From: a bacterium | GTDB lineage: Bacteria; UBA8248 | DNA: 64,000 nucleotides | Reading direction: 5' to 3' | NCBI GenBank assembly: GCA_965203325.1 | Contig: OZ241875.1 | Coordinates: 320,001-384,000, forward strand | In this document: piece after piece, positions 1 to 52,522 of the stretch | Numbering within the stretch: the stretch's first letter is position 1 | How the letters are laid out: each line of letters starts with the position of its first letter | Translations under genes and position numbers: made by a program | Notes under the pieces: model-generated | What the model was told of the DNA's origin: nothing | Database searches by the model: none | The model's input: only the letters and a program-made list of their open reading frames with translations

Positions 1-324
1 GAGAATGCTGATACGCTTGTAAATCAGGGCCGATGGATTCAGCAGTATTTCGACATTATCGAATCGAACAAAAGGCGTCTTGCTCTTTGCCCCGCCTTTT
101 TCTGTTTGCCCGTTGATGACGACTCCACTCGCCTCGATCTTGAACAATCCCAGTTCCAGCCGGTCGATGGATACTTTACGACCGAGGATTTTCTGCCCTT
201 CTCTCTCCGCAATTCTGATTACCTCATCTGAGGAAAGAAAAATTTGCACGGCGACGATCACAACGATTGTCAAAACGAAACTTATGCCGGCAATCCAAAC
301 CAACCATTTCAAGAATCGATACAT
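1..324 (-). CDS. AsmA/DUF748-like protein, N-terminal part (continues off the window's left edge)
   Basis: Hand translation from ATG at 324: MYRFLKWLVWIAGISFVLTIVVIVAVQIFLSSDEVIRIAEREGQKILGRKVSIDRLELGLFKIEASGVVI...; N-terminal TM helix followed by an 'LGRKVSI' AsmA-type beta pattern; frame open to position 1. Confidence 0.6.
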   Translation of the reverse strand, partial: MYRFLKWLVWIAGISFVLTIVVIVAVQIFLSSDEVIRIAEREGQKILGRKVSIDRLELGLFKIEASGVVINGQTEKGGAKSKTPFVRFDNVEILLNPSALIYKRISIL

Positions 325-481
325 AGTGGACCCATTGCGGAAAACAAAAAGGCGGCTCATAAAGCATAAGATAATTTAGATTTCATACCACTGCCTCATG
401 TTATATATTAGCAAAATGCGATTTTTTGTGTCTTCTTAATGTTTGAAACTGAATTCCTCTTTTTTGTAGTGAATCGCCTAT

Positions 482-1777
482 ATGAATAAGAATCCCGTTG
501 ACACGAACACAGATACTCAACGCCCAAAATCGAATCGAGGTCGAGAAGTCTTTTCCTGGTGCATGTACGATTTTGCGAACTCCGCTTTTCCAACACTTAT
601 CGTAACAGTTGCTTACAGCGTCTATTTCAAGACAATCGTAGCGGGGGGCGGTGGGAGAGGAGATTTCCTATGGGGGATTGCGCTCTCAATGGCCATGATT
701 TTAAGCGTGTCCATCACCCCGCCTTTGAGCGCGGTCGCCGACAAGCGAAGCACCCGAAAACGCTTTTTGGTGCTTTTCGCCTATATTTGCGTATTGGCCA
801 CCGCCCTTTTGGCAAATGTAACCGCCGGGATGATCTTTGCCGGGATGGCGCTTTTCATCATCGCCACCGGTGCATTCGAAAGCTCTCTCATCTTCTACAA
901 CTCTTTTTTGCCCGACGTCTCTACGCCGAGAACCGTCGGGAAGGTTAGTGGCTGGGGCTGGGGACTTGGATATCTGGGCGGTCTGCTTTGTCTTTTTTTG
1001 GTCAAACCTTTGTTGGCGGGAGGGTTTTCACAGGAAAATCTTCCCTTGTTCCGTATGAGCTTCGTTGCGGTCGCCGGGTTTTATGGCCTGTTCACGATCC
1101 CGTTAATTTTTTGGCTACGCGAGACCAAAGGCAATACCATAAAACCAAACGAAAAAGGCGCTTTCGCCGAACTATGGAATACGCTCCAAGACACGAGAAA
1201 AACTCCGGGCGCAATCAGGTTTCTTATCGCCTTTTTCCTCTATAACGACGGAATTGTCACCGTCATTTCTTTCAGTTCGATCTATGCGGTTTCTACGTTG
1301 AAATTCAGCATGGGCGAAGTATTGGGTCTCTTCATCATGGTTCAAGTCTCGGCCGGCGTCGGCGCGTTTGCGCTCGGGTATCTGGTGGACGCCTGGGGGG
1401 CGCGGAAGACGATTCTGCTGACCCTGGTGAATTGGTGTGTAGTCGTCATCGTGGCCTATTTCACTGAAACGAAATACGTCTTTCTGGGTATCTCGCTGCT
1501 GGCGGGACTATCCCTCGGTTCTAGCCAATCTGCAAGCCGCTCACTCATGGCCAGCTACATTCCTGAAAAAAGATCCGCGCAATCATTTTCGTTTTACGGT
1601 ATTTGCGGCAAAATGAGCTCGGTTCTCGGCCCACTTGTTTTCGGAGGCGTTTCCGCACTTACTGGAGAGCAAAGAACAGCAATATTATCCGTGCTCGTCT
1701 TTTTCCTGGTGGGAGGCGCCTTGCTGTGGCTAACGCCGGAAACCAAGAAATCGGATCTGGCGGACCAAGAGCTATGA
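482..1777 (+). CDS. MFS transporter (Atg22/UMF1-like)
   Basis: 431 aa, ~12 hydrophobic segments; 'WCMYDFANSAF', 'FYNSFLP', 'VSGWGWGLGYLGG' typical of this MFS subfamily. Confidence 0.85.
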   Translation: MNKNPVDTNTDTQRPKSNRGREVFSWCMYDFANSAFPTLIVTVAYSVYFKTIVAGGGGRGDFLWGIALSMAMILSVSITPPLSAVADKRSTRKRFLVLFAYICVLATALLANVTAGMIFAGMALFIIATGAFESSLIFYNSFLPDVSTPRTVGKVSGWGWGLGYLGGLLCLFLVKPLLAGGFSQENLPLFRMSFVAVAGFYGLFTIPLIFWLRETKGNTIKPNEKGAFAELWNTLQDTRKTPGAIRFLIAFFLYNDGIVTVISFSSIYAVSTLKFSMGEVLGLFIMVQVSAGVGAFALGYLVDAWGARKTILLTLVNWCVVVIVAYFTETKYVFLGISLLAGLSLGSSQSASRSLMASYIPEKRSAQSFSFYGICGKMSSVLGPLVFGGVSALTGEQRTAILSVLVFFLVGGALLWLTPETKKSDLADQEL

Positions 1778-1849
1778 TGCGTTTACTCTCTCTCCGAAAG
1801 CGCGACATGTTGAGCGTTTCGTCTCCTCCAGCCATCTCCCGGAGTTGAC

Positions 1850-2215
1850 TTGGAGTTTCGTGAACAGATTTACCAAAGGCTGATGTTTCATCTTGGAGAA
1901 ATCGAAGTTTCCAAGGAAACTGTCGATGCCTTCACGTCCGACATCGTCCATATTCTTGACCGCGTTACGCAGGACAGAATATACGAGGCGAGTTTACGCC
2001 AAATTCTCCAGCGTTACGCCGATGAGTGGGCGGAGCAGTCTTCTCGTAGAATTCTGGATTCCAAAAGTGATGAAGCCACGGAAATCGTATATGAAATGAT
2101 TGACCGCCAAGCCAGAAATCGCGCCGTCCGCGCACTCAGGAAAGTCCTGCTCGATACACTGCAAGGCCAGAAAAAACCATTGGACGATCTCGATTTTTTT
2201 AACGAAACCGAATAA
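1850..2215 (+). CDS. hypothetical protein
   Basis: 121 aa ORF with GGAG upstream of TTG, collinear with neighbours; no recognisable motif. Confidence 0.6.
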   Translation: MEFREQIYQRLMFHLGEIEVSKETVDAFTSDIVHILDRVTQDRIYEASLRQILQRYADEWAEQSSRRILDSKSDEATEIVYEMIDRQARNRAVRALRKVLLDTLQGQKKPLDDLDFFNETE

Positions 2216-2235
2216 TTCAAAAACAGAGGTTCTCG

Positions 2236-2631
2236 ATGCCAGAAAAAAAATTAGCGGAAGAAATCGCAAAACGCAGGGGTCGCAGATACCCGGCCCATGA
2301 ATTCATCGCCGAGAAATTTCCCGACTACATGGAAGCGCTTTTACATCTCGATGAGATCATCCGAGCGAAAGAAAGAAGATTCAATGAAGCAATGCATGAA
2401 CTCTTTCATATCATAGCACTCGCCGTTGAGGGTTCGAATCCGCATAATCAGCCACACCTCAAACAGCATCTGAAGAAAGGTCTCAAATTAGGCTTACACC
2501 CGGAAGAAATAGCTGAAGCACTTATGGTCTGCGTAAACCCGGCGGGCTCCAAGGTCCTCACGTATGGCGTCACCTGTATGCTCGAAGCAATGGATGAACT
2601 CAAAGCCGAGGGTTGGACATATCCCGACTAA
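2236..2631 (+). CDS. carboxymuconolactone decarboxylase (CMD/AhpD-like) family protein
   Basis: 'HELFHIIALAV...HLKQHLKKGLKLGLHPEEIAEAL' CMD helical pattern; GAGG RBS. Confidence 0.7.
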   Translation: MPEKKLAEEIAKRRGRRYPAHEFIAEKFPDYMEALLHLDEIIRAKERRFNEAMHELFHIIALAVEGSNPHNQPHLKQHLKKGLKLGLHPEEIAEALMVCVNPAGSKVLTYGVTCMLEAMDELKAEGWTYPD

Positions 2632-2664
2632 ATAGCTATTTCTCTTAAGCACATCTTTTGAGGC

Positions 2665-2994
2665 TCACGCTTCTGCTCGAATTGCCTCTTCACGCAATGG
2701 AGAATAAATACCGATATATGTGATGGGTGTGGGGGCATCCAGTCGATGCGGCACTCCTTTGGGTATGTGAACCACCTGACCCGCTTTGACATTGCGCGTT
2801 TCACCGGCGACTGTAAACGTAGCTTCGCCCTTCATGAGATATACGAGTTGCTCCACATCATGAGTATGGTCCTGTTCCGTTCCTCCCTCTCTTTCGATAT
2901 ACAACATCATGACCTGCTCGCCGACGACGAGCCTGCGCTCCCTACCCGGCATCTTTTGGGGTTCAATTTCCGCCAGATCATAGAAATATTGCAT
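2665..2994 (-). CDS. cupin domain protein
   Basis: 'HTHDVEQLVYLMKGEATFTV...GQVVHIPKGVPH' cupin motifs 1 and 2. Confidence 0.85.
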   Translation of the reverse strand: MQYFYDLAEIEPQKMPGRERRLVVGEQVMMLYIEREGGTEQDHTHDVEQLVYLMKGEATFTVAGETRNVKAGQVVHIPKGVPHRLDAPTPITYIGIYSPLREEAIRAEA

Positions 2995-3160
2995 CAGCCT
3001 ACTCCTTTTGGTTTACGTTTCGAATAGATTTTCAGATTGTTGACTTTTGGAGCCACAATCGCAAAATCATCACAAAACCCGCCTTGCAATCACACACCCA
3101 TCATCCCTAGAATCCTCTCCTGTTTCGTCGAACCTCCGCAGTTTACTAGAGGATAAATTC

Positions 3161-4573
3161 TTGGTGAATACCGACATCCGAGTTCGCTTTGCTCCATCCA
3201 ACACGGGCCACCTCCATATCGGTGGCGCGAGGACAGCACTGTTTAACTGGTTTTTTGCGAAACATCACGAAGGCACAGCCATTTTAAGAGTCGAAGATAC
3301 CGACCGGCAACGCTCTACGGAAGAATACTACGACGCAATCCTGGAAGCATTCAATTGGCTGGGTCTTGAATGGGATGAAGGCCCATATCGTCAATCTCAG
3401 CGGATGGATTTATACCAAGAAGCAGCCAATAAACTCCTATCTTCCGGCCATGCCTATCGGTGTACGTGCACACCAGATGAAGTGAACGCAATGCGTGAAC
3501 GAGCTCGCGCCGAGGGGAAAACACCGAAATACGACGGCACCTGTCGGGATCGATATGACAAGGACCCGGGTATTCCATTTTGCCTTCGCCTCCGGGCGCC
3601 TGATACCGGAGAAACCATTGTCAACGACATCCTTGCCGGAGAAGTATTGTTCGAGAATTCACAACTCGACGATATGGTCATCGTCCGAACTGATGGGACA
3701 CCCACATACAATTTTTGCGTGGCTATCGATGACATCGATATGAAGATTAGCCATGTGATCCGCGGCAACGACCATCTATCCAATACCCCCAGACAAGTTC
3801 TCGTCTATCGGGCCTTGAATGAACCCACACCAAAATTCGCACATATATCGATGATATTGGGACCCGACAAAAAAAGACTTTCAAAGCGTCATGGCGCAGA
3901 TTCGGTATTGGAATACAAAGAGCGCGGCTTTCTCCCCAATGCGTTGATCAACTATCTCGTTCGTCTCGGGTGGAGTCACGGGGATCAAGAAATTTTCTCC
4001 AAAGAAGAAATTATCGCAAAATTTTCCTTAGAAAATTTGAACAGGTCTGCCGCGATCTTCAATCCGGAAAAATTATTGTGGCTGAATCAGGAATACATTA
4101 AATCGACTGATAGTGATTTCCTCGTCAAATCGCTCGATACAGGTCTTAAGGAGCTGGGCTTATCACCAGAGCTACTCACACATGGAACACGCAAGGGCAT
4201 TGTGGATGAACTCAGAACCCGTTCGAGAACTTTAACGGATATGATAGATGGCGCTCGTTTTTTCTTTGAAAATGAAATCGAGTTGGACGAGAAAGCTGCA
4301 TCGAAATTCCTGAATTCCGAAAGTTCGAGTCTAATCATGAAATTGCGGGATGAACTCACCAATATCGATACATTTTCAACTGAAAACGTTAAATCGGCTT
4401 TTCATCACGTAATGGAAGAAGAAGCCGTAAAGCTCGGCAAACTGGCTCAACCCGTACGCGTCGCCATTACGGGCGGAACCATCAGTCCCGGTATCTTTGA
4501 AACACTCAGCCTTCTTGGAAAAGAGGAGAGTCTCCACCGCCTCGACGCGGCTTTGGCCAGAATCAATCAATAA
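3161..4573 (+). CDS. gltX: glutamate--tRNA ligase
   Basis: 'RVRFAPSNTGHLHIGGAR' (HIGH motif), 'LRVEDTD', 'HVIRGNDHLSN', 'KRLSKRHG' (KMSKS-like); start placed at TTG 3161 (or GTG 3164) after AGGA. Confidence 0.95.
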   Translation: MVNTDIRVRFAPSNTGHLHIGGARTALFNWFFAKHHEGTAILRVEDTDRQRSTEEYYDAILEAFNWLGLEWDEGPYRQSQRMDLYQEAANKLLSSGHAYRCTCTPDEVNAMRERARAEGKTPKYDGTCRDRYDKDPGIPFCLRLRAPDTGETIVNDILAGEVLFENSQLDDMVIVRTDGTPTYNFCVAIDDIDMKISHVIRGNDHLSNTPRQVLVYRALNEPTPKFAHISMILGPDKKRLSKRHGADSVLEYKERGFLPNALINYLVRLGWSHGDQEIFSKEEIIAKFSLENLNRSAAIFNPEKLLWLNQEYIKSTDSDFLVKSLDTGLKELGLSPELLTHGTRKGIVDELRTRSRTLTDMIDGARFFFENEIELDEKAASKFLNSESSSLIMKLRDELTNIDTFSTENVKSAFHHVMEEEAVKLGKLAQPVRVAITGGTISPGIFETLSLLGKEESLHRLDAALARINQ

Positions 4574-4632
4574 TTGACTTCACCATCGTCCTTGACGAAT
4601 AAAGAACTCATACATATAAACATCTAGGTTTT

Positions 4633-4706
4633 TGGGGGATCGTCTAGCGGCAGGACACCAGACTCTGGATCTGGGTACGGAGGTTCGAATCCTCCTCCCC
4701 CAGCCA
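4633..4706 (+). tRNA. tRNA-Gln (anticodon CTG)
   Basis: TGGGGGA...TCCCCCA-G-CCA acceptor stem; CCAGA-CT-CTG-GA-TCTGG anticodon arm; GGTTCGAATCC T-arm. Confidence 0.95.
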
Positions 4707-4774
4707 CTCAATTCTTACGAGTTATATTCGGCGCACGGAATTTCGTAGTATTCTTTCATCCTTTATCCAAGGAG

Positions 4775-5437
4775 ATGACAATGACTCTAAGAATCAATGA
4801 TGAAGTACCAGATTTTTCCGCCGATACGACCCAAGGCTCTATCAATTTTCATGAATGGATCGGTAATGGCTGGGCCATCATATTTTCGCATCCAAAGGAC
4901 TTTACACCCGTATGCACCACGGAACTCGGGACTATGGCCGGACTCAAGCCGGAATTCGATAAAAGAAACTGCAAAGTGATTGGCATCAGCGTCGACGGAG
5001 TTTCCGACCATGAGAAATGGTCGAAAGATATCGAAAGCTCTCAAGGGCATGCTGTGAATTATCCCCTGATTGGCGATCCCGAACTTAAAATCGTTAAAGC
5101 CTTTGACATGCTGCCTGCCGACTCAGGCGACACCTCAGATGGCCGGACGGCCGCAGATAATGCGACGGCACGCTCGGTTTTCGTTATCGGGCCGGACAAG
5201 AGAATCAAGGCGACGCTCACCTATCCAATGAGCACGGGCCGGAATTTCAGCGAAATCCTGAGACTGCTCGATTCCTGCCAGTTGACGGCCAGTGAACAGG
5301 TGGCGACCCCGGCGAACTGGCAACAGGGCGAAGATGTGATTATTTTGCCGGCTGTCTCGGATGAGGATGCGAAGAAGAAATACCCGGAGGGGTGGGAATC
5401 GCCACTTCCCTACATTCGGGTTGTAAAACAACCATAG
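4775..5437 (+). CDS. 1-Cys peroxiredoxin (Prx6 type)
   Basis: 'FSHPKDFTPVCTTE' active site; 'YPMSTGRNF', 'VATPANW'. Confidence 0.93.
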   Translation: MTMTLRINDEVPDFSADTTQGSINFHEWIGNGWAIIFSHPKDFTPVCTTELGTMAGLKPEFDKRNCKVIGISVDGVSDHEKWSKDIESSQGHAVNYPLIGDPELKIVKAFDMLPADSGDTSDGRTAADNATARSVFVIGPDKRIKATLTYPMSTGRNFSEILRLLDSCQLTASEQVATPANWQQGEDVIILPAVSDEDAKKKYPEGWESPLPYIRVVKQP

Positions 5438-5504
5438 GTAGGGGCATTGCAATCACCGATTGATGCGACCAAGCAGGTACAGGGTTAATACCTCGTTTCA
5501 GATA

Positions 5505-5541
5505 AAAAAAGAGCCGCGGCTGATACAAGCCGCGGCTCTTT
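5505..5541. terminator. bidirectional rho-independent terminator
   Basis: A-run + GAGCCGCGGCT-loop-AGCCGCGGCTC + TTT between convergent genes. Confidence 0.8.
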
Positions 5542-5561
5542 ATGCTTTCCTATGAAAAAGC

Positions 5562-6557
5562 TTAGTTTTTCCAACCCTCTGCAGCCATGGCCTCTTTCAC
5601 CATGCTCAGATCCATGCCTTCCTTACGAAGATCCACTGTACGTTTCGCTTTTCGCTTTTTCAGAAGAACCTTGCCCATGTGATCAAACCATTTGTAATCC
5701 GCCTCAGATGGGAGAAGGCCGAAAGTCAGATCGTTCACAGAAGCTTTCACTATTTTGAGCTTGATCTTCGAACCTTTCGATTGTAGATGGTTCAGGTATA
5801 CACGTGCAAACTTATCGCGGTTGTCTCTGTGCAATTTCATGCCACGAATGAATCCTCTCAAAAACTTCGTATACACATCTCTATCTTTCTTGAGGGTTTT
5901 TCCGTTGGCCATTAAAATCCACAGGTTGTTTGCATATTTGCAAAAAGTTTCCACTGTGCGGGCATATCCCCTGTCGATGGCAATGGCAGCTTGCGGGTTA
6001 TTCAAAGCTATCATATCCACTGTCCGGGATTTAAGCGCCGCCATGCGGGTATCATTGTTCATGTTCACGGTCGTGAAATCTTTCACGGTTAAACCATATT
6101 CCGGCAAGATGAAGGTTGTCAGCGTGAAATAAGTACCCGTAGCTTTACCTACTCCAAGTCTTTTGCCCTTCAAGTCATGCAAGGTTTTCACAGGTGATTT
6201 TGGAGATGTGAGAATTTTATTTGCTTTGCACCAATAATTTGCATTTCCGATTCCAGGGGCATTCGCTCTTTTCGATATGGCTGAGTAAAAAGCACGGTCG
6301 GCAGCGCCACCAATATCAAGAGAGTTCGCCAAAATCGCCTGACGCATTAATTTGCCCTGTGGGAATTGTTTAATGGTGTATTTTCCCTTGCCGATGGTTT
6401 GATTATAATAGCCCATCTTATGAGCAACGATGGTGACCGCTCCCATAACAGAGCGATGGTGGCCGATGCGGAATGGCGCTGCGTGAGCGGAAAATACCGT
6501 CAACAAAACTCCCGCCATGGCCAGGGCGACAACTAGAAAAATACCTCTGCGATTCAT
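5562..6557 (-). CDS. ABC transporter substrate-binding protein (SsuA/TauA/NMT1-like)
   Basis: Signal peptide ending AHA; 'SPVKTLHDLKGKRLGVGKAT' and 'ALKSRTVD' patterns; no permease or ATPase adjacent. Confidence 0.8.
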   Translation of the reverse strand: MNRRGIFLVVALAMAGVLLTVFSAHAAPFRIGHHRSVMGAVTIVAHKMGYYNQTIGKGKYTIKQFPQGKLMRQAILANSLDIGGAADRAFYSAISKRANAPGIGNANYWCKANKILTSPKSPVKTLHDLKGKRLGVGKATGTYFTLTTFILPEYGLTVKDFTTVNMNNDTRMAALKSRTVDMIALNNPQAAIAIDRGYARTVETFCKYANNLWILMANGKTLKKDRDVYTKFLRGFIRGMKLHRDNRDKFARVYLNHLQSKGSKIKLKIVKASVNDLTFGLLPSEADYKWFDHMGKVLLKKRKAKRTVDLRKEGMDLSMVKEAMAAEGWKN

Positions 6558-6783
6558 TACAAAATCCTCCTTGAGATTCATTGGCCCGAAGGCATCCATG
6601 GGTGAAACAGCAAGAAGAGCAACCCGTTACCGGGAAGCAAATTTCAATGTCGAAAATCCCATCAAATCAATATGAGAGAAACGTATCATACCTTGTGACA
6701 TAATTGCATCCTGCTTTGCCCCCGGAATTAATCTCTCATTTTCCATCCCGAAAAAATCTCCGACCTGTTTCGACTTGTTTTGA

Positions 6784-7995
6784 TTAGGCAGTGGATTCCG
6801 GTTCAGGACTTCGTCTTTGCAAGGACAAAGCCAAAACAAAACCCACAAGCAAAACGATTGGAAGCGTCCAAAAAGCATTCAGCATTCCGATTCTTTCCCC
6901 AAGAATAGAAAGGGGGAGCGCTGTTAATCCGGCCAATAATGTACCACCACCCAGTATCAATGAGCTTGCGAAGCCCCGATGCTCTGGCAAGTACTCTTGG
7001 GATAAGGCAACAGATACGCCCATTGGCACAAAAGCCCCTGCACCAATGATTGCCAGAGATATATAAGACCATTCCAAGGAAGTTAATTGAAAAACCAACA
7101 TACCGGCCAAGGCGCATCCAACGCCGATTGTAATCACTTTAGGCTTCCCGTACCTGTCACCTAAAATACCACCGAGCATGACGCCTATAGCTCCTGAGAT
7201 AAAAATGATCGAGTTAGCCATACCGCCTCGCCAAAGCCCAAAGCCCCTTTCAACAAATATCGTAGGCAAAAAGCCCGATAAATTCATCAAGGTCATCCCC
7301 CGCACAACCGCAATACCGAACAGGAGCAGTACAGGACCTCGTACATTTTTAAGCGCTATTATCAAACCCGTTTGCCCGCCTCCTGCGTAATTTTTTTTCT
7401 TTCTCTGGGGCGGAGCCGGCATCCCTAATTTCACACCCGCCATAGCGAGCACCGCCACAAGGATGAACACCCACAAATGCTCCATCCCCATCATTTCTGC
7501 GATAAAAATGGCGATCAACGGACCAATTGCGAAACCCAACCTTCCCGCCGTAACGAACAAGCTGACAATAAATCCGGCATGTTCGGAACTCAGCCTACCT
7601 GCCCGCGCGGCCATATCCGGATGGCATAACCCAAAAAGGATTCCCCCCATGATTACTGCAGCGGCCAAACCATATACGCTCGTCACCCAACCAATCGCTG
7701 TAAAAGCTATGGAACTTCCGATTAGGCCTACGGTTAGCCAGGGTAACCAAGGCCACCTGTCAATGACGATACCGGTGATGGGTTGCGTGATAGAGCCACT
7801 CACTGTCTGACAAGAAATCAAAAAACCGATTGTCGTGATACTGAGTCCTAATTTTTCTTTTAATAATGGGGCAAGGGGTGCGAAGAAATTGGCCTGGCTA
7901 TCCACCACGAAATGCGCAAAGAAAATGAGACCTGTTCCGGCCCAAGGTACAGTACGTAAGGATGGTTTTTCAGAATTCCGAGAGTTTTTTTTCAT
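6784..7995 (-). CDS. MFS transporter (Fsr-like)
   Basis: 'HFVVDSQANFFAPL', 'SITQPITG', 'GRLGFAIGPL', 'GDRYGKP'; ~12 TM. Confidence 0.8.
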   Translation of the reverse strand: MKKNSRNSEKPSLRTVPWAGTGLIFFAHFVVDSQANFFAPLAPLLKEKLGLSITTIGFLISCQTVSGSITQPITGIVIDRWPWLPWLTVGLIGSSIAFTAIGWVTSVYGLAAAVIMGGILFGLCHPDMAARAGRLSSEHAGFIVSLFVTAGRLGFAIGPLIAIFIAEMMGMEHLWVFILVAVLAMAGVKLGMPAPPQRKKKNYAGGGQTGLIIALKNVRGPVLLLFGIAVVRGMTLMNLSGFLPTIFVERGFGLWRGGMANSIIFISGAIGVMLGGILGDRYGKPKVITIGVGCALAGMLVFQLTSLEWSYISLAIIGAGAFVPMGVSVALSQEYLPEHRGFASSLILGGGTLLAGLTALPLSILGERIGMLNAFWTLPIVLLVGFVLALSLQRRSPEPESTA

Positions 7996-7997
7996 AT

Positions 7998-9014
7998 CTA
8001 CCTTGGGGCCAAGGCCCTCAACGTCCGTTCGACCGCTTCTTGATAACTCTCATCCGCCAACACGGGGTCGATCATCAAAGCCGGCATATCCACTCCGGCA
8101 TCATAGAAAGCCGCCAAGCGTTCCCGGCACCTCTCTGGCGGGCCGACAAGACAAAATTCATCGATGATGGCGTCTGTAATCCCCTCTCTCAAAGCCTTTT
8201 GATCGCCACGTTCGAAGGCTCGTTTTATGGATTCCGCCTCTTGTTCATAACCGCTTTTCCGAATCGAATTGTTGTATGCGGGAAGTCCCAACCAATATGT
8301 CAATGTTTGGCGGGCAGCTTCTCTCGCGAAGTTGAGGTCGTCACATAAGAAGGTATGTATTCCAAGATCAATCTCTACATCACGGGGATTTCTGTTTGCG
8401 CGTTTCGCGCCTGCGTCTCTCGCTTCCAAATAGGCGCCCATCCTTGATAGCGGAACCATATACGGCAACAATCCATCGGCTATTTCTCCGCCAAGCTCTG
8501 TCATCTTTGGGCCGACGGCTGCTATGTAAATTCGGACCGGATAGTTTGAGCGCCTGAATTTCAACTCCTCTCCCTGGTAAGTCTGGACAGGAAGAGGATA
8601 CACAGGCTCACCCTCCAGTACACCTTTCACCTCACTCACATATTTCCGCATATCTTCGAGAGGATTTCCGGGCTCTATCCCCATCGCTTTAATTCGGGGC
8701 GGGTGCCCAAGTCCGAGACCTAAGATATAGCGGCCGCCGGAGATTTCGCTGATCGCCGCCGCGCCTTGGGCCGCCATGGAAGCATGGCGCAAATAAATGA
8801 TGGCAACCGAACTCCCGATCTCGATCCTGGACGTGTATGCCGCCATCAACTGATTGATGGCCAGGGTGTCCGTCAAAGATTCTGTCGTATAAACACGATC
8901 ATATCCCAATTCCTCCCCAAGCCTGGAAACCTCTCCTAATCCCTTCAAGGAAATGTCCGCAAACGTGAGAAGCCAAAACCCGAGGCGATGCGTCATATCA
9001 AACCCTTCCGTCAA
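7998..9014 (-). CDS. LLM-class flavin/F420-dependent oxidoreductase
   Basis: 'TSRIEIGSSV', 'EISGGRYILGLGLG', 'IYIAAVGPKMTELGGEIADG', 'LVGPPERCRERL'. Confidence 0.88.
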   Translation of the reverse strand: MTEGFDMTHRLGFWLLTFADISLKGLGEVSRLGEELGYDRVYTTESLTDTLAINQLMAAYTSRIEIGSSVAIIYLRHASMAAQGAAAISEISGGRYILGLGLGHPPRIKAMGIEPGNPLEDMRKYVSEVKGVLEGEPVYPLPVQTYQGEELKFRRSNYPVRIYIAAVGPKMTELGGEIADGLLPYMVPLSRMGAYLEARDAGAKRANRNPRDVEIDLGIHTFLCDDLNFAREAARQTLTYWLGLPAYNNSIRKSGYEQEAESIKRAFERGDQKALREGITDAIIDEFCLVGPPERCRERLAAFYDAGVDMPALMIDPVLADESYQEAVERTLRALAPR

Positions 9015-9032
9015 CCATGTCCTTGGGCATAC

Positions 9033-9794
9033 TCATTGGCATAATCGACCCCCATCCATCAATATGACTGCCCCGTTCATATAGGATGCTTCATCAGAAG
9101 CCACGAAAACAGCGCAATCGGCGATTTCTTCCGGAGCAGCAAATCGCCCCAACGGTATATTACTCATCAGTTTCTCTCGTCTATCTGCTTGCGTTTCCAC
9201 GCGGTGCTTCGTCCCCTCACTCAGAGTCGTCCCCGGAGCTATCGCATTCACCCGAATCCCTTTGGGGCCTAGTTCGGCGGCATGCGCCTTCGTCATCAGG
9301 TGCATGGCCCCTTTCGTGGCACAATAGAGCGAATTATCGGGTACCCCTGCCTCGCCGGATGTCGAGCCGATGTTGATGATCTGACCATCTGCCCTGGGAA
9401 TCATGTGCTTGGCCGCCAATCCACTCAGAATGAACGAGGCCATCGCATTGACCTGAAAAAGCGCGACTACTTCTTCATGCGTAATTTCCTCTACGGGCTT
9501 GTTGCAGCGGATTCCGGCGCAGTTCACCAAAATATCGAGACTACCCAGATGCATCAGGGCGCGAGTCATCAAAGGAGCCGCATTCGCCAGGTTCGACAAA
9601 TCCACACCCTCGCCAGCCGCCGATATTCCCTGGGCCTTGCAATAAGCGAGGGTCGACTCCAAAGCTCTCTGGTTCCTGCCACCCGCCAAATATAGTGAAC
9701 AACTCTCTTCGGCGAAACGCCTTGAGATGGCGGAGCCGATTCCCACCGAGGCTCCGGTGATCAAGGCCGTCTTTCCTTGCAGTCGCAATCGCAT
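9033..9794 (-). CDS. SDR family oxidoreductase
   Basis: 'TGASVGIG', 'LVNCAG', YxxxK 'YCATK', 'GIRVNAIAPG'. Confidence 0.92.
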   Translation of the reverse strand: MRLRLQGKTALITGASVGIGSAISRRFAEESCSLYLAGGRNQRALESTLAYCKAQGISAAGEGVDLSNLANAAPLMTRALMHLGSLDILVNCAGIRCNKPVEEITHEEVVALFQVNAMASFILSGLAAKHMIPRADGQIINIGSTSGEAGVPDNSLYCATKGAMHLMTKAHAAELGPKGIRVNAIAPGTTLSEGTKHRVETQADRREKLMSNIPLGRFAAPEEIADCAVFVASDEASYMNGAVILMDGGRLCQ

Positions 9795-9808
9795 ATCGAA
9801 TAGTTCCT

Positions 9809-10357
9809 TTACTTTAACGGAGGCTCTGTTCCTTCCGGCACTTGTAGTTCAAATGCGTTGAGCGTCATCGAGACGGTCGTGTAATGTCCAATAAGACCGA
9901 TTAACTCCACCAGCCCACGCTCTCCGAAATGCTCGAATGCGTTCTGGTAAATCTCATCGCTCACGAAATGATTTTCGTGTAATGCGATACAAAAATCATA
10001 GATCGCTGCCTCATCGGCGGCCATTTCTTGGGGCCGCCTGTTCTCCTGAACCGCCTCGATAATCTCGGGGGATAAACCTCCCTTCCTGGCCAAAGGCTCA
10101 TGGGCGTACCATTCGTATTGCGAACCCCAGAACCGGGCGGTGATCAAAATCGCAAACTCGCTCAGCCTGGGCTCGAAGAGGGTGTCATAGCGTAGGTAAC
10201 GCCCCGTTTCCTCCAGCTTTTCAAGATAAGCCGGGCTTTTCAGCCACGCCAGAAACGGGCCGCGTACGCCTCCTCTGGGGCCGGAGGCGATTTTTTCATG
10301 GAGGTTTCTCTGCGCCTCCGTCATCTGTTCCATTGGTGTCTCGGTCAAACGTGCCAT
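9809..10357 (-). CDS. carboxymuconolactone decarboxylase family protein
   Basis: 'GPRGGVRGPFLAWL', 'LSEFAILITARFWGSQYEWYAH', 'FGERGLVELIGLIGHY'; start set at MARL. Confidence 0.85.
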   Translation of the reverse strand: MARLTETPMEQMTEAQRNLHEKIASGPRGGVRGPFLAWLKSPAYLEKLEETGRYLRYDTLFEPRLSEFAILITARFWGSQYEWYAHEPLARKGGLSPEIIEAVQENRRPQEMAADEAAIYDFCIALHENHFVSDEIYQNAFEHFGERGLVELIGLIGHYTTVSMTLNAFELQVPEGTEPPLK

Positions 10358-10576
10358 CGGTATGAGTTCTCCTATAGACTGAAAACGTGCGCGAACATTC
10401 ACCCTCCAACTGCTACATAAGAATTTCACAGGTTGCAAGGCGATGCTTAGTCTGATAAGCAGTTAACAAGGCTGCGGCCGGCGCGGCCAACTTGAATTTC
10501 TGGAAATGTACTTGGAGTGAAGGGCCCCCACCTGTTTCATCTCTACCCATTTCCAAAATATGCAGGAGATCAGCAA

Positions 10577-10792
10577 GTGCCAGAAGGAACAGTGAAGTGG
10601 TTCAATGACGCGAAGGGCTATGGATTCATTTCGCAGACGGATGGTGACGATGTTTTCGTCCACTTCTCCGCCATCCAGGGAGAGGGCTTCAAAACCCTGG
10701 AGGAAGGACAAAACGTGAACTTCGAAATTGTCCAGGGCCCGAAAGGGCTCCAAGCGGCCAACGTCACAAAGGGGGGTGACTCCGAAGAATAA
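10577..10792 (+). CDS. csp: cold-shock protein
   Basis: '[15 protein letters not shown]', 'DVFVHFSAI', '[10 protein letters not shown]'; GTG start after AGGAG. Confidence 0.95.
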
Positions 10793-10814
10793 CCCTCGTA
10801 CAGAGAAAACCCGA

Positions 10815-10846
10815 AACGACGGCTCACCCGGGCCGTCGTTTTTTTG
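10815..10846 (+). terminator. rho-independent terminator after csp
   Basis: AAACGACGGC-loop-GCCGTCGTTTTTTT. Confidence 0.8.
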
Positions 10847-10952: not shown

Positions 10953-12056
10953 ATGCGCGACGTCATTATCATCGGTGGCGGCATCATGGGTCTCCTCACG
11001 GCGAGAGAACTCCGCAAAACGGGCAGGAGCGTCACCATCATCGAAAAGGGCAGGCCCGGAGCAGGCGCCACCTGGGCTTCCGCTGGCATCATCTCCGCAC
11101 ACGGGACGAGCGGCTCCGCCGATATCGCCGGCCCCCCGGGTCTCAAGCTCCGGACCGCCTCCTATGAAAAATGGCCCCAACTCGCGGAAGCCATCGCCGA
11201 GGAAAGCGGAACGGACATCGAATACCGCCTCACCGGCGTATTGCTGATCGCCCTGGACGAGGCGGAAGCGGAGTCCATACAGGAAAAGGCCCGTGCGCGC
11301 GAGTGGGGCGAGGCGGAGTGGATGCCGCCCGACGTTTTGCAGGCCGAAGAGCCCTGCCTTTCAGATGAATTGTCGGGAGCGCTCCTGGTCACGGGCGGAA
11401 ACCTCGAAGTCAGAAAACTCGGGCCCGCGCTCGAGCTCGCCTGCAGGCGGGCGGGCGTGGAGATCATCACCGGATGCGCGGCCGAGGAAATCCTGAGCGA
11501 TGGCGATAAAGTCACCGGCGTCCGCACGGATGCGGGCGTCCACGAGGCGCCCGCCGTCTTCATCTGCGCAGGGATAGGAAGCCGCAGCGTGCCGGGCGCC
11601 GTTCCCCGGGCGCCCATCACCCCCCAGCGCGGGCAGATGCTCGCCATGGACGCCAGAGCGCTCGGGCTCAAGCGTGTCGTGCTGACCGTGAACGACCCCT
11701 ACCTCGTGCCCCGCGCCGACGGCCGCGTTCTGCTGGGCGCGACGAGAGAGTTCGCCGGCGAGGACCCGAGGCTCACCGTGGGCGGCATGGCCTGGCTGCT
11801 GAGCGAGGGCATCCGCATCGCGCCCGGAATCGCCGCTTGCGCCATCGAGGAGACCTGGAGCGGCTTCCGGCCCACCTCGTCGGACTATCTGCCCCTCATC
11901 GGCCAAGGCGCCCTCGATGGCCTTTACTTCTGCACCGGGCACGGGCCTTCGGGGGTCGGGCCTGCGCCTGCGAGCGTGAGGCTGGCGACGGCGCTCTATC
12001 TGGGAGACGCCCCGCCGATCGATCCGGCGCCCTATGACCCGATGCGCTTCGCGTAG
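10953..12056 (+). CDS. FAD-dependent oxidoreductase, glycine oxidase (ThiO/DAO-like)
   Basis: 'DVIIIGGGIMG', 'ATWASAGII', 'YLVPRADGRVLLGATRE', 'WSGFRP', 'CTGHG'. Confidence 0.85.
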   Translation: MRDVIIIGGGIMGLLTARELRKTGRSVTIIEKGRPGAGATWASAGIISAHGTSGSADIAGPPGLKLRTASYEKWPQLAEAIAEESGTDIEYRLTGVLLIALDEAEAESIQEKARAREWGEAEWMPPDVLQAEEPCLSDELSGALLVTGGNLEVRKLGPALELACRRAGVEIITGCAAEEILSDGDKVTGVRTDAGVHEAPAVFICAGIGSRSVPGAVPRAPITPQRGQMLAMDARALGLKRVVLTVNDPYLVPRADGRVLLGATREFAGEDPRLTVGGMAWLLSEGIRIAPGIAACAIEETWSGFRPTSSDYLPLIGQGALDGLYFCTGHGPSGVGPAPASVRLATALYLGDAPPIDPAPYDPMRFA

Positions 12057-12553
12057 CAAATGCGGGGAAATGCGGGCTTCGGAAGAAGTTTTTTAATTCG
12101 ATAAATTTCGATAATATATTAATGTATTACATTAACATATCCTGGCATTTTGCTAATTTAACGCAAAATATATCGTTAGTTTGACCCTCAAATAATTTCA
12201 GAAATTTATCGATATTTACCGTATTTTTCAGAAATTCGAAATCCGCGCGCTCGCTCGTACGATACGAGGATTTCACCGCTCCGCCGTGATGGGGGACGTA
12301 CATGTAGCGCGAGGGATTCGACCGCTTCGAGCGCGTCGCCGCGCTCATTCGCAGCGAGGGATTCTCCCGACTCACAGGGGTGAAAGCATCGCCCGAGATT
12401 GTCTTCGCCATCGCTTCTTCCTCAAGAAAACCGTGCGGATTCGACCGCTAGAACCGACCGGCCGCCTCTCCCTCGTGGAGAGAGCGGGCCGCTTTGCCAA
12501 TCTAGCGAAACGCCCGCCGCGCGTCGCAGCGCCAAATGCGGGGAAATGCGGGC
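12057..12553. repeat. AT-rich dispersed element, copy 1, bracketed by perfect 21-bp direct repeats
   Basis: CAAATGCGGGGAAATGCGGGC at 12057-12077 and 12533-12553; 12057-12242 aligns without gaps to 51103-51288. Confidence 0.85.
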
Positions 12554-12650
12554 AAACTCGGCTGATGCGGGGCTTGTTGAAAAAGCCGGTATGCAACCCC
12601 AACGAAGATCGCTCTCCACGGATGAGATTTTCAAATCCACTCCCCCCTTG

Positions 12651-12857
12651 AGGGGGTTGTTGAAAAACCCCTATCCGACCTTCAAGATTGTTCGCCGTAG
12701 GGACAGGCCTCCGTGCCTGTCCGAGGTCTCTTACGGGCATGGACATTCCCGATACGGGCGGGCACGGAGGCCCGCCCCTACGGTTGAAATTTTCATCCGC
12801 GGCGAGCGCGGCCATGATTCGCCATCCCTCTCTCCTCGGACTATTTCAACAACCTCT
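12651..12857. mobile_element. MITE-like element with GTTGTTGAAA ends enclosing a GTAG REP pair
   Basis: Left AGGGGGTTGTTGAAAAA (12651-12667), right TATTTCAACAACCTCT (12842-12857); internal GTAGGGACAGGCCTCCGTGCCTGTCC...GGGCGGGCACGGAGGCCCGCCCCTAC (12697-12781). Confidence 0.6.
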
Positions 12858-12942: not shown

Positions 12943-14106
12943 CTACCTCACAGGCGCTATCCTGTAGACCGCTTCGCGTTCTTCCGAGAGAAACCACAGC
13001 GTTCCGTCGGGCGCTTCCTGGACGTCGCGCACGCGGCCCGTCTCGGGAAACGCCAGCCGCTCGACCTCTCTCAAGCCGCCTTTCGGGTCGAGGCGGGAGA
13101 TATAATCGAATTTGAGAGAGCTGACGAAAAAATGCCCGCGCCAGGCCGGCCACAGCTTTCCTGAATAGATATCCATCCCGCAGGGCGCGATGGAAGGGTC
13201 CCAGTAGAAATCGGGCTGCTCCATGCCCTCTTTCGCGGCGCCAACGCCGATCTTCCCGCCCCAGTAGTGCCGCCCGTAGGCGATGACAGGCCACCCGTAG
13301 TTCGCACCCTTCCTCACCCGGTTGATCTCGTCTCCGCCCCGCGCGCCGTGCTCGACGGCCCAGAGCGCGCCCGCCGCATCGAGCGCGGCGCCCTGGGGGT
13401 TCCTGTGGCCCCACGACCATATCTCGGGCCGCGCCCCTGCCCGCCCAACGAATGGATTATCCTCAGGAACGCTCCCGTCGCGCCTTATGCGGACGATCTT
13501 GCCGTGGTGCAGGGAAAGGTCCTGCGACTTGTCGGGGTCTCCCCGCTCGCCCAAGGTGAGAAAGAGCGTCCCGTCCGGCGCCTCCACGACCCTTGAGCCG
13601 AAATGCCGCCAGCCCGAGGCGGGCGCCGCCATCTCGAAGATGACGCGCAGGTTCTCGAGCCTTCGGTTGTCGCGTGAAAGCGCTGCGACGGCGAGCGCGG
13701 TGCCCGCCCCGCCAGGGTAAGGTTTCGAGTAGGTGAGGAAAATCTCGCGTGTCTTGGGAAAATCCCTCGCGGCGGCGACGTCCATCAGTCCGCCCTGGCC
13801 CCACGCATAGACTTGCGGGACGCCCGAAACTTTGATTCTGCGACGCGCGGAGTCAAAATGAAAAAGTGAGCCGCCGCGCTCGGTAACCAGAAACGCCCCG
13901 CCCGGCAGGAACGCAATCCCCCAGGGGGTGTCGAGACCTCCCGCCACCTTTTCGACCGATACCGGCCCGCTCAGTGTCTGGCGCACCACCGCCCATCCGG
14001 GAGTGGCGGTAAGGACAAGGAGCAGCAAAGCGATGAGGCAGGACAAAGCTGCCGGACGCCTACCGGCCCCGGCATCAGTCATCAAATTTCTCCAAACAAT
14101 CTTCAT
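12943..14106 (-). CDS. PQQ-dependent (soluble aldose) sugar dehydrogenase, YliI/GSDH family
   Basis: Signal peptide; 'LDTPWGIAFLP', 'GQGGLMDV', 'RHFGSR', 'EIWSWGHRNPQG', 'EHGARGGDEIN...NYGWP'. Confidence 0.92.
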   Translation of the reverse strand: MKIVWRNLMTDAGAGRRPAALSCLIALLLLVLTATPGWAVVRQTLSGPVSVEKVAGGLDTPWGIAFLPGGAFLVTERGGSLFHFDSARRRIKVSGVPQVYAWGQGGLMDVAAARDFPKTREIFLTYSKPYPGGAGTALAVAALSRDNRRLENLRVIFEMAAPASGWRHFGSRVVEAPDGTLFLTLGERGDPDKSQDLSLHHGKIVRIRRDGSVPEDNPFVGRAGARPEIWSWGHRNPQGAALDAAGALWAVEHGARGGDEINRVRKGANYGWPVIAYGRHYWGGKIGVGAAKEGMEQPDFYWDPSIAPCGMDIYSGKLWPAWRGHFFVSSLKFDYISRLDPKGGLREVERLAFPETGRVRDVQEAPDGTLWFLSEEREAVYRIAPVR

Positions 14107-50403: not shown

Positions 50404-51087
50404 ATGACGAACCAGGCAAGCGAGACGAGCAAAATCCGGCTGCTGAACCCCGATGAGGCGGCGGGCGATACGGCCCGTTTTTTCGAGGCGACGCGCGAGT
50501 TTCTGGGCCGCATCCCCAATTCCGCGCTCGCGCTGGCGAACACCCCCTACATCGCGCGCTTCTACCTCCCCTTCAACGCCACGCTCCAGCGCGAGGGCAT
50601 GGGCGGGCTTTTGACGTGCAAGATCAAGGAGATCGTCGTTCTCAAGACGAGCTTCGTCAACGCTTGCGCCTACTGAATCGCGCACAACACCGCGCTTGGT
50701 CAAGCGACGGGAATCACGGATGCGCAGATCGAGGCCATCACCTCGGACGACTACATGACATCCCCGGTTTTAAGTCCCCGTGAGCGCGCCGCCTGCCTGT
50801 GGGCGGAGCATTTTACGAGAAACACCGCGCGAGAGAACCCGGGCGTGCTCGAGGAAGTGAAGCGGCATTTCACCGACGGCGAGATTGTCGAGATGTCCCT
50901 CATGAGCGGCAAGCAGGGGATGATGAACCGCTTCATGGACTCGTTCGCCATCCCCATCGAGGAGGAGGGCGAGGTGAACAAGATCAGGAAATCCGTGCGC
51001 GGGAACCCCGAGAAGATGAAGGCCTATCTGCAATCGCTCATCGACAACTGGCCCGAGGAGTTCCCCGAACCCAACCCGGATGACTAG
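50404..51087 (+). CDS. AhpD/CMD-family probable selenoprotein (CxxU; UGA at 50674-50676)
   Basis: ORF-track pieces 50389-50676 and 50755-51087 share a frame; read-through gives 'KEIVVLKTSFVNAC-A-Y-U-IAHNTALGQATGITDAQIEAI', the AhpD CxxCxxH motif. Confidence 0.8.
50690..50710 (+). promoter_or_regulatory. candidate bacterial SECIS hairpin
   Basis: CCG-CGCTT-[GGTC]-AAGCG-A-CGG; G-starting apical loop begins 21 nt after the UGA. Confidence 0.6.
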
Positions 51088-51102: not shown

Positions 51103-51457
51103 GAAATGCGGGCAAATGCGGGGTCCGGAAAACTCTTTTTAATTCGATAAATTTCGATAATTTTATAATGCATTACTTTAATATATTCCAGCAAATTGCT
51201 AATTCATAATATAATATACCGTTAGTTTGACCCATGAACCTTTTCAGGAATTTATCGATATTTATCGAATTGTTCATCAATTCGAATTTCAGGGTTCCCG
51301 TCCTGGTTCGGGGCAATTTCATCGCTTGAACGTCCTCTTTCGTCTCGAACCGGCTGCGGCGGCCCGACGACGCCACCGGGTCTGCCCGCATGAACGGGCG
51401 GCCGGAGCATAACGCGGAAGCGGCGGGGAGAAGGTCCGGCAAATGCGGGGAAATGCG
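51103..51457. repeat. AT-rich dispersed element, copy 2
   Basis: GAAATGCGGGCAAATGCGGGG (51103-51123) and CAAATGCGGGGAAATGCG (51440-51457); core homologous to 12057-12242. Confidence 0.85.
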
Positions 51458-51487
51458 CGACCAACCCTCCCTGCCCCGTCAGCCCGA

Positions 51488-52522
51488 TCACAAATAATCC
51501 TTAACCTCCACCGTTTCACCCAGGCGCGAGCTCGCGTCCGCCGCGTAGACGACGGCCAGGTTCTCGTGCGCCACGCGGCCGTCGACTTCGGGCGTTCTAT
51601 CCCCGCGCACGCAATCGGCGAAATCTTCCAGCGCATCGCGGAACATGTCCCCCTCGGGCATGTCGTATACCGAATCTTCCCCGAGCGGGTCCCGGTCCAC
51701 ATGCAGGCGGATGGGTTCTGACGCCTTGGAGGGGTCGCGCCACTGCTGGCCGGTGATGCGGAAATGCGCGACGCCCTTCGTGCCGTGCACGTTCATGTGA
51801 AACGCCCAGGGGCACGCCCAGCCCCCGCCGACGTAGGAGAGCGCGCCGTTCTCGTGCTCCAGGATCATCATCGAGGTGTCATCCACGTCCTCGGTCGCAT
51901 AGGCGCGCTTTAACTTCGCGGTGACGCTCCTGATCGGCCCGTGCAGGTAGCGGAAGGTGTCGATGTGGTGGATGGACAGCTGGATGACCACGCCGGTGGG
52001 GTTGAGTTCGCGGCTCGAGCGCCATCTGTCGGGCGTGAGTTCCAGCCCACGCTCGGTGCAGAAGTTGCTCTCGCTCATCGAGATTTTCCCGATTTCGCCC
52101 GCGTCTATCAGCTCCTTCATGCGGCGCGAGACGGCCAGACGGCGCGCGCTGTGGCCCACCGCCAGCTTGACGCCCACGCCCTCCGCCGCATCGACGATGG
52201 CCCTTGAGTGCTCCAGGCTGTGCGCGATGGGCTTTTCGCAATAGACGTGCTTGCCCGCGGCGGCCAGCGCCTCGATGTGTTCCTTGTGGTTATGGTTGGG
52301 CGTCGTGAGTATGACGGCCTCGATTTCATCGTCGCTCAAAAGCGCCTCGAAGCTCTCCGCCTCTCTCGCGCCGTAGCGCTCCATGAAGGCGCGGCGCTTT
52401 TCCGCCGTGCGGCTGTAGCACGAGACGATCCTGATTTTACCGCCGCGAAGTGCTGCGTCGGCGAGCACGTTTGCCCAGCGGCCCAGCCCCATCGAGGCGA
52501 CGCGCAGGGGTTCGAACGACAT
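51488..52522 (-). CDS. Gfo/Idh/MocA family oxidoreductase
   Basis: 'GLGRWA', 'AGKHVYCEKPIA', 'IHHIDTF'. Confidence 0.9.
   Translation of the reverse strand: MSFEPLRVASMGLGRWANVLADAALRGGKIRIVSCYSRTAEKRRAFMERYGAREAESFEALLSDDEIEAVILTTPNHNHKEHIEALAAAGKHVYCEKPIAHSLEHSRAIVDAAEGVGVKLAVGHSARRLAVSRRMKELIDAGEIGKISMSESNFCTERGLELTPDRWRSSRELNPTGVVIQLSIHHIDTFRYLHGPIRSVTAKLKRAYATEDVDDTSMMILEHENGALSYVGGGWACPWAFHMNVHGTKGVAHFRITGQQWRDPSKASEPIRLHVDRDPLGEDSVYDMPEGDMFRDALEDFADCVRGDRTPEVDGRVAHENLAVVYAADASSRLGETVEVKDYL

Follow-up and report, generated by a model that had tools for sequence, protein, structure and literature searches.

A genus-specific family of polar intergenic repeats that shares a doublet with phage-like operons and carries the attachment site of integrase islands

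The AT-rich elements that were found in the analysed window, a stretch of 64,000 nucleotides corresponding to bases 320001-384000 of a 4.39 Mb single-contig bacterial genome, are one polar unit type of a modular family of intergenic repeats restricted to a single genus of uncultured bacteria. The elements are linked to phage-like operons of the same genome by a shared tandem doublet, and one of their parts, the R module, is the chromosomal attB of integrase/relaxase islands of 37-60 kb. We consider it rather probable that the unit is a polar DNA platform driven by a late-type promoter and belonging to a regulon of phage-like genes, with the R boxes doubling as attB.

Structure and distribution of the element

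The cores of copy 1 (12057-12242) and copy 2 (51103-51288) were aligned without gaps over 186 bases with 39 mismatches, an identity of 79.0%. The runner-up gapless identity elsewhere in the window was 0.42, and the 99.9th percentile was 0.35. The G+C content of both cores is 29-30% (24-25% in the AT part), as compared to 60% for the window. Copy 1 begins 2 nt past the stop codon of a DAO-family oxidoreductase gene (10953-12056, plus strand) and faces the convergent GSDH gene (12943-14106, minus strand). Copy 2 begins 17 nt past the stop codon of an open reading frame at 50755-51087 (plus strand), and the convergent gene that it faces is of the GFO/IDH/MocA type (51488-52522, minus strand). The 21-bp repeat CAAATGCGGGGAAATGCGGGC occurs exactly at 12057 and again at 12533 in copy 1, and the two halves of a 12-bp inverted repeat, TCGATAAATTTC and GAAATTTATCGA, are likewise exact at 12098 and 12201. 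On recount, the gapless match with its 39 mismatches, the AT-richness, the perfect direct and inverted repeats of copy 1 and the position of both copies just past stop codons between convergent genes were all as the preliminary description had given them.

In copy 1, the left doublet AAATGCGGGG-AAATGCGGGC lies at 12058-12077 on the minus strand and forms the distal end of the unit, with no -10 hexamer behind it. It is followed by the junction of an A-run and a T-run (12082-12094; family consensus AAAAAnnTTTTT), which is a conserved block in an alignment of 57 sequences, and by the L boxes (12099-12116), of which CGATAAAT occupies 12099-12106 and CGATAATA 12109-12116. An AT-rich spacer (12117-12195) with the semi-conserved stretches TTAATGTATTACATTAA (12119-12135), TTGCTAATT (12150-12158) and CGTTAGTTTGACCC (12174-12187) leads to the R module TTTCAGAAATTTATCGATATTTACCGTATTTTTCAG (12196-12231), the family-wide version of which is the island attB; its boxes are at 12204-12211 and 12214-12221. 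The GC-rich variable segment (12232-12498, minus strand) is a presumed leader transcribed from the right-hand promoter; inside it starts the open reading frame 12127-12411 (minus strand), which lacks a coding signature. The segment extends to the -10-like hexamer TAGATT (12499-12504, minus strand). This hexamer lies 29 nt behind the right doublet (12534-12553, minus strand), which is a putative upstream promoter element and presumed activator site pointing leftwards.

Copy 2 has the same parts in the same order: the left doublet AAATGCGGGC-AAATGCGGGG (51104-51123, minus strand), the A-run/T-run junction GAAAACTCTTTTT (51129-51140), the L boxes (51145-51162) with CGATAAAT at 51145-51152 and CGATAATT at 51155-51162, and the R module (51242-51272) with ATTTATCG at 51250-51257 and 51260-51267. 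Its GC-rich variable segment (51273-51405, minus strand) is not alignable with that of copy 1. The -10-like hexamer TATGCT (51406-51411, minus strand) again lies 29 nt behind the right doublet AAATGCGGGG-AAATGCGCG (51441-51459, minus strand), a putative promoter element. In both copies the boxes inside each L or R block are spaced by 10 bp, and the distance from the first CGATAAAT box to the first ATTTATCG box is 105 bp, or about ten helical turns. The doublet pattern occurs five times in the window at up to two mismatches, compared with 0.05 occurrences expected from shuffled sequences.

The element had initially been described as present twice, which proved to be an undercount. Six full 186-bp AT cores were located in the genome, at coordinates 147269 (+), 332057 (+), 371103 (+), 511055 (+), 702945 (+; diverged) and 4034283 (-); all six had E-values of < 1e-35 in an AT-core nhmmer search that gave 85 matches overall. 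The doublet AAATGCGGGSAAATGCG had 76 genome matches at up to one mismatch, with none for the reversed control, and AAATGCGGGS doublets numbered 103 at up to two mismatches. R modules with iterated CGATAAAT were present in at least 65 copies. According to our own crude gene calls (3447 genes, covering 83% of the genome), an intergenic position was assigned to 98 of the 103 doublets and to 63 of 65 R modules. The elements were found at synteny breaks. In this genome their orientation showed no bias relative to the neighbouring genes, and with respect to the replichores there was no bias either (62/103, 30/54 and 26/56) and no clustering along the genome. As no preference of orientation toward genes or replication is seen, a benefit to the flanking genes is not evident, and selfish spread of the elements is possible.

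The family is confined to a narrow group of bacteria. Of 22 genomes of the same genus, 19 gave a match to the 541-bp element of copy 1, as against none of 18 genomes of other genera. A scan with a 20-nt block in one genome per species yielded 41 loci, mostly in metagenome-assembled genomes of Nitrospinota/Nitrospinaceae or in ones already among the genomes compared here, the remainder being single chance matches in unrelated taxa. Across most of the genus there are 35-104 doublets per genome, with the exception of G015 and G019 (3-4) and of G008 and G009 (0-3); in other genera the number is 0-3 per genome, and the reversed control gave 0 everywhere. The family thus amounts to dozens of copies per genome across one genus.

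The doublet and the phage-like late operons

A hexamer was regarded as -10-like when it had at least four of six matches to TATAAT, including A2 and T6. Behind the 103 doublets of the genome, such a hexamer starts at an offset of 29 in 45 cases and at offsets of 28-30 in 54, and at no other offset between 0 and 59 were more than three hexamers seen. We also compared 59 AT-core copies from 16 genomes, six of them from this genome and 53 from 15 relatives. The hexamer was present 28-30 nt behind 46 of the 52 right doublets that were found in these elements and behind none of the 59 left doublets. As it follows right doublets and never left ones, the unit is polar. The reverse complement of the doublet reads CGCATTT-S-CCCGCATTT and consists of two 10-bp direct repeats. 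No conserved -35 was found between the doublet and the -10, and a simple sigma-70 scan, for which a -35 was required, gave 0 sites in both copy regions, as would be expected of a promoter type without a -35.

A -10 at a fixed distance, here 28-30 nt, is what characterizes a promoter with an upstream activator site. Judged by its sequence, the right doublet is the upstream element of a predicted minus-strand promoter that points into the element. Geometry and conservation by themselves suggest promoter activity and actual transcription, and the two 10-bp direct repeats would suit the binding of an activator. The preliminary description had been misled by its premise that a location between convergent genes needs no promoter, and had named arm/core-type sites among its suggestions; with a -10 at 28-30 nt, the right doublet contradicts this premise and is better read as a putative promoter upstream element.

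The same doublet stands in front of phage-like genes. Four solo doublets with the -10 hexamers CTAGAT, TATATT, TATATT and TAGAAT were located between 1.605 and 1.637 Mb of the genome. Three of them lie 84-180 nt upstream of the first genes of a capsid-protease, a large terminase and a small terminase operon, and the fourth precedes an endolysin gene by about 460 nt, a short unassigned open reading frame lying in between. The capsid operon encodes a 692-aa capsid-protease fusion (PF25209), and the others a large terminase (PF05876) with a portal protein, a small terminase like gp27 of Mu, and the endolysin. Ordinary cellular genes separate these operons. Of 22 genomes of the genus, 20 have one copy of the capsid gene, and no capsid match was obtained in G008 and G009. 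Its identity within the genus goes from 96% down to 77% and ranks the genomes as the housekeeping DAO gene does, and in other genera it is 72% and about 40%. The phage-like genes look domesticated, given the single copy, an identity that follows that of a housekeeping gene and the interspersed cellular genes. The operons would form one co-regulated, functional system.

The doublet with a CTAGAT-like hexamer is found upstream of the capsid gene in 20 of 21 loci of the genus, among them those of G001, G006, G015 and G019, genomes in which no AT-core family was found. In our reading, the phage-like late genes presumably had the doublet as a cis-element from early on, and the dispersed elements are probably a later expansion that carries it. 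As the elements and the phage-like late operons have the doublet/-10 promoter in common, the elements would be wired to the late regulon. A derivation of the AT core from the AT-rich region upstream of the capsid promoter was also considered; it gave only a weak nhmmer match (E = 6.7e-4) and is not claimed.

The AT core and its R module

Five R modules of the genome are broken at the identical position, between ..AAAATACGAT and TAATCATTGTCAT.., and the sequence from the break leads on for about 200 nt into an integrase gene. Four further R modules hold the matching right junction, and the paired junctions bound islands of approximately 37, 60, 44 and 41 kb. The 60-kb island encodes two tyrosine integrases with Arm-DNA-bind_3 and Phage_integrase domains, HU, a TetR regulator, a TrwC relaxase and a type I restriction-modification system. 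At the 702.9-kb locus, an element of the AT-core type is intact in G016, G011 and G010 and is split in this genome by the 37-kb island, with the 8-bp sequence ATCGTATT at both junctions. The same locus has an interior of another subfamily between identical doublet ends in G012 and no element in G007. In a flank query for a second empty site, the flank was itself found to be repeat-rich. Both window copies are unoccupied by an island; it is at other loci of the family that the attributes of a tyrosine-recombinase attB were seen, namely occupied and empty forms, a short junction core and an adjoining integrase. A multi-copy attB explains the four or five island copies in one genome. The idea of a recombination platform, put forward when the element was first described, thus holds for the ATTTATCG block, with empty sites and a linked recombinase found, and fails for the doublets.

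The arrangement of the AT core was found to be rigid. All 59 copies keep the left doublet in register; in 52 of them the offset of the L block AATTCGATAAATTTCGATAA is 203-205, and in 51 that of the R block is 313-316. Past the first doublet, at a distance of 302-706 bp (median 432), comes another that points the same way. The 57-sequence alignment has as its conserved blocks the doublet, AAAAAnnTTTTT, the L boxes, TACTTTAATAT, GTTAGTTTGA..CC.TAAAC.TTTTC and the R boxes. At the DAO locus, 10 of 15 genomes of the genus retain the copy directly behind the stop codon, with unchanged core length. It is degenerate in three of the 15, one of which, G003, has the 10-bp unit ATTTTCAGAT iterated where others have ATTTATCGAT, and it is absent in two (G001 and G006), where no doublet remains. 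A 4.4-kb transposon of the IS1595 type, accompanied by an 8-bp duplication, ATATTTAC, interrupts the copy-1 orthologue of G012. In our preferred reading, the geometry of the AT core would be under selection locus by locus, as the retention at the DAO locus and the near-invariant spacing suggest.

The many copies, nearly all intergenic and without preference of orientation, could also stem from a non-autonomous transposable element of the MITE kind. Its terminal inverted repeats would then be the L and R CGATAAAT blocks, which are inverted to each other and would be recognized by a transposase acting in trans, and the conserved boxes would have no use beyond the movement of the element itself. 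Inverted box pairs do bound an AT-rich body of about 130 bp, there are several subfamilies with swapped interiors, such as that of G012 between the same doublet ends, and the location at synteny breaks fits as well. However, conserved sequence continues beyond the supposed inverted repeats and takes in both doublets and the A/T junction, and retention of the DAO-locus orthologue in 10 of 15 genomes with unchanged spacing is not expected of a dead copy. Moreover, no target-site duplication was seen when the occupied DAO locus was compared with the empty loci of G001 and G006, the right flanks being non-homologous, and a blastn search with the 541-bp element gave no match, and hence no matching transposon end, in phage and plasmid collections. 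We regard a MITE-like origin as unlikely.

The AT core could alternatively be a pac-like terminase site or an origin-like unwinding site behind a late promoter, in which case particles would start filling at some 50-100 defined chromosomal sites. The elements and the terminase operons have a common promoter type, the phage-like genes look domesticated, and the layout resembles that of P1 pac, a 161-bp site downstream of a late promoter in which the repeat clusters HEX4 and HEX3 flank IHF and cut sites, as outlined in PMC10028697. As in P1 pac, a segment of about 160 bp has two clusters of short repeats around a bend-prone centre and a putative late-type promoter upstream; going by that outline, the resemblance is one of form only. 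P1 itself has only one pac, which lies within pacA and contains Dam-methylated hexamers, unlike the elements, which are dispersed in many copies. Furthermore, no CGATAAAT boxes and no AT-rich segment were found in or beside the small-terminase operon, and there is no orientation bias with replication. Such a packaging or unwinding site is in our view distinctly improbable. We give a comparably small chance to the proposal that the elements are landing pads of a domesticated gene-transfer-agent-like system of these sponge-associated Nitrospinota. There, some 50-100 dispersed units would be turned on simultaneously by a late activator, and the rigid AT cores would be pac-like or origin-like sites from which DNA export starts at defined positions, not at random. 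A literature search at the level of abstracts returned nothing on elements of this kind or on gene transfer agents in Nitrospinota.

The AT core probably works as DNA and not as a protein or a folded RNA, and it lacks both coding and RNA-structure signals. The entropy per codon position, taken from 58 copies over the 28 codons that follow the R anchor, was 1.20/1.35/1.25, which gives no codon periodicity and no excess at the third position. RNAalifold returned -0.88 kcal/mol for the AT core and essentially no consensus structure. Covariation in the 12-bp inverted repeat and the central palindrome did not go beyond that of shuffled alignments (observed = shuffled); changes in one flank of the inverted repeat are uncompensated, and the spacer palindrome is not kept as a pairing. 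No Rfam family was matched by the element at gathering score, and in E-value mode the top score was 11.9 bits against a gathering score of 235. A simple terminator scan found 0 sites in both copy regions. The original description of a non-coding platform of fixed spacing, acting at the level of DNA, has therefore stood up, with no Rfam family for the element and near-invariant spacing over 59 copies.

A small gene with the conserved C-terminus ..FLKNTxNIDKFLK.. (candidate open reading frames at 12127-12411, minus strand, 94 codons, and in copy 2 at 51173-51442) or a structured small RNA is a very remote prospect, the latter having neither an Rfam family nor covariation. The frame is open to a common stop codon in 21 of 58 AT cores, the ATG of copy 1 and a Shine-Dalgarno-like GAGGAAG are kept in eight orthologues, and G007 differs by a 45-nt (15-codon) deletion, so that a short peptide from the copy-1 open reading frame keeps a slight chance. 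Against this, substitutions in the GC-rich part are spread evenly over the codon positions (8/9/10, 11/10/10 and 11/12/6 in three orthologue pairs), 16 of 58 cores have a stop codon five codons past the anchor, the R module is also open on its opposite strand, the length difference between long and short R modules is a single 10-nt unit and not a multiple of three, and the two small open reading frames have no Pfam family at or above the curated cut-off.

A possible role and comparison with known systems

In the reading that we prefer, a promoter-driven platform within the late regulon, the order of parts on the minus strand would be the right doublet, the -10 hexamer 28-30 nt later, the variable GC-rich leader, the AT array and the left doublet. 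The AT array would present the R boxes (units of ATCGATAAAT), a spacer of about 85 bp and the L boxes, inverted and 105 bp away, and would be followed by the A-run/T-run junction and the second doublet without a -10. Once made, the late activator would bind both ends of every element. Transcription would start at the right end, cross the GC-rich segment and enter the AT core, of which the phased boxes and A-tracts would bind one or more proteins. The R boxes would additionally be used as attachment site by the integrase/relaxase islands. The binding partners of the CGATAAAT boxes and the function of the unit in the cell are matters on which we infer rather than observe. The role that we prefer would be regulatory: the unit may titrate the late activator, its two doublets may be joined by looping, or it may act on read-through; for the latter, candidates are a roadblock to transcription into the convergent neighbour and the nucleation of a silencer on the tract of 24% G+C.

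The elements join three subjects that are usually separate, namely dispersed repeats, a phage-like regulon and the choice of target by conjugative islands. If the promoter reading is true, a phage-late activator controls dozens of extra transcription units in uncultured symbionts, and a regulatory signal of a mobile element has been colonising the host genome. The combination of doublet, 29 nt and -10 also offers annotators a simple signature of late-type promoters in this lineage.

In the late promoters that depend on P2 Ogr, P4 Delta or Mu C, a conserved upstream site replaces the -35 and lies at a fixed distance to the -10. Promoters of this type are repeated before head, packaging and lysis operons, and their site is a dyad. 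The doublet is similar in having an upstream site in place of the -35 and in standing before head, packaging and lysis operons. In contrast to the P2/P4/Mu type, the site is here a tandem direct repeat of a 10-bp unit, and it has been copied to dozens of intergenic positions that are not phage-like. The REP/BIME, ERIC and BOX repeats are also genus-restricted, intergenic, modular and multi-copy, and they are mostly palindromic and thought to form RNA or DNA hairpins. The present elements differ from these in that no hairpin is conserved and the unit is polar, with a predicted promoter.

The closest parallels in organization come from Neisseria. In the neisserial mosaic elements, as summarised in PMC3898611, RS units are flanked by dRS3 repeats, which are the target of phage Nf1 (the MDA island). 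The dRS3 unit itself has a length of 20 bp, with terminal inverted repeats of 6 bp, and is not known to carry a promoter. Like the mosaics, which exist in hundreds of copies, the family is modular and intergenic, and a conserved short repeat is the target of the recombinase of a mobile element; the association of the mosaics with rearrangements, in the same summary (PMC3898611), has its counterpart in the location of our elements at synteny breaks. Unlike dRS3, the bounding repeats are here 10-bp direct doublets, one of which is a putative promoter element common to phage-like operons, and the invader is not a filamentous phage, as in Neisseria, but a tyrosine-integrase/relaxase island of 37-60 kb. 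The Correia elements, which are MITEs of Neisseria, carry transcription initiation signals and a site for the DNA-bending protein IHF in the outline given by PMC3898611, and are likewise intergenic repeats with promoter signals. Our units differ from them in being 300-700 bp long and polar, with direct doublets at their ends, in having no visible target duplication and in a promoter that is predicted to be of the activator-dependent type. Altogether, the family appears to be set apart from these neisserial repeats by its direct doublets, its polarity, a putative promoter common to phage-like operons and the use of a part of it as attB.

Integrative islands and synteny breaks

A single family of integrative elements, which carry tyrosine integrases and a TrwC relaxase along with type I restriction-modification, was found in four or five copies in the genome, outside the window, and every copy is inserted in an R module, an iterated-box block, of the intergenic repeat family. 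Copies lie at genome positions 703110-740099, 971522-1031777 (stretches L148 and L149), 1219802-1264194 and 3830748-3871609. One more left end, the fifth, is at 2380155, and no right end was found for it. Elements of the repeat family also lie at synteny breaks, at genome positions 1874118-1877134 (L044) and 866133-869149 (L038); in relatives, flanks that adjoin each other in this genome are separated by 1.6 kb, 9 kb or about 600 kb, or fall on different contigs.

Variation in and around copy 1

The orthologue of copy 1 (window 12057-12553) in G003, a genome of the same genus, has, in place of the R block, a tandem array of the 10-bp unit ATTTTCAGAT, repeated four to six times, while the doublets are retained (L140). 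This replacement may reflect boxes co-varying with their putative binder. In G012, another relative, the AT core of the copy 1 orthologue is split by a 4.4-kb low-GC transposon (L073, about 1925-6365) with inverted ends of ~27 bp and an 8-bp duplication, ATATTTAC. Judging from its translation, the transposon would encode an IS1595-like transposase and methyltransferase pieces, as well as a protein of 360 aa whose C-terminus is HNH-type.

Other short repeat families adjoin the right doublet, both at window 12554-12700 and in the right flanks of many elements (e.g., L134 and L138). One of the repeats abutting right doublets reads GGTCAAAnCCGAyTGATGAnGG and in places forms tandem hairpin-like units, GTCAATCGC..GCGATTGAC, with three copies in genome G004; a second is the word TTGTTGAAAAAGCC. 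Within the GC-rich variable segment of copy 1, GGATTCGACCGCT occurs twice (window 12324-12340 and 12437-12450) and is kept in orthologues. Read on the minus strand it is GCGGTCGAATCC, which resembles a tRNA T-arm.

Phage-like late operons

Outside the window, four phage-like late operons are scattered among cellular genes at genome positions 1600001-1640000 (L146 1-20000 and L147 1-20000). They carry, respectively, a capsid-protease fusion with a minor tail protein, a large terminase as two ORFs together with a portal, a small terminase, and an endolysin. The capsid gene is single-copy, and its divergence parallels that of the species across the genus and beyond. The operons resemble a phage remnant that has been domesticated or has long been fixed, and they may be gene-transfer-agent-like.

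Other features of the window

The G+C content of window 1-10000 is 45-53%, versus about 62% elsewhere in the window, and a tRNA is located within this stretch at 4633-4703; the stretch is possibly a foreign island. At window 10486-10844 (+), a match to the Rfam cspA thermoregulator scored 85.6 bits against a gathering score of 78. It overlaps an ORF of 91 aa (10517-10792, +), which, judging by the translated G012 orthologue, is taken to be a cold-shock-protein gene. The cspA thermoregulator family is defined in enterobacteria, and the match in the window falls outside that group.
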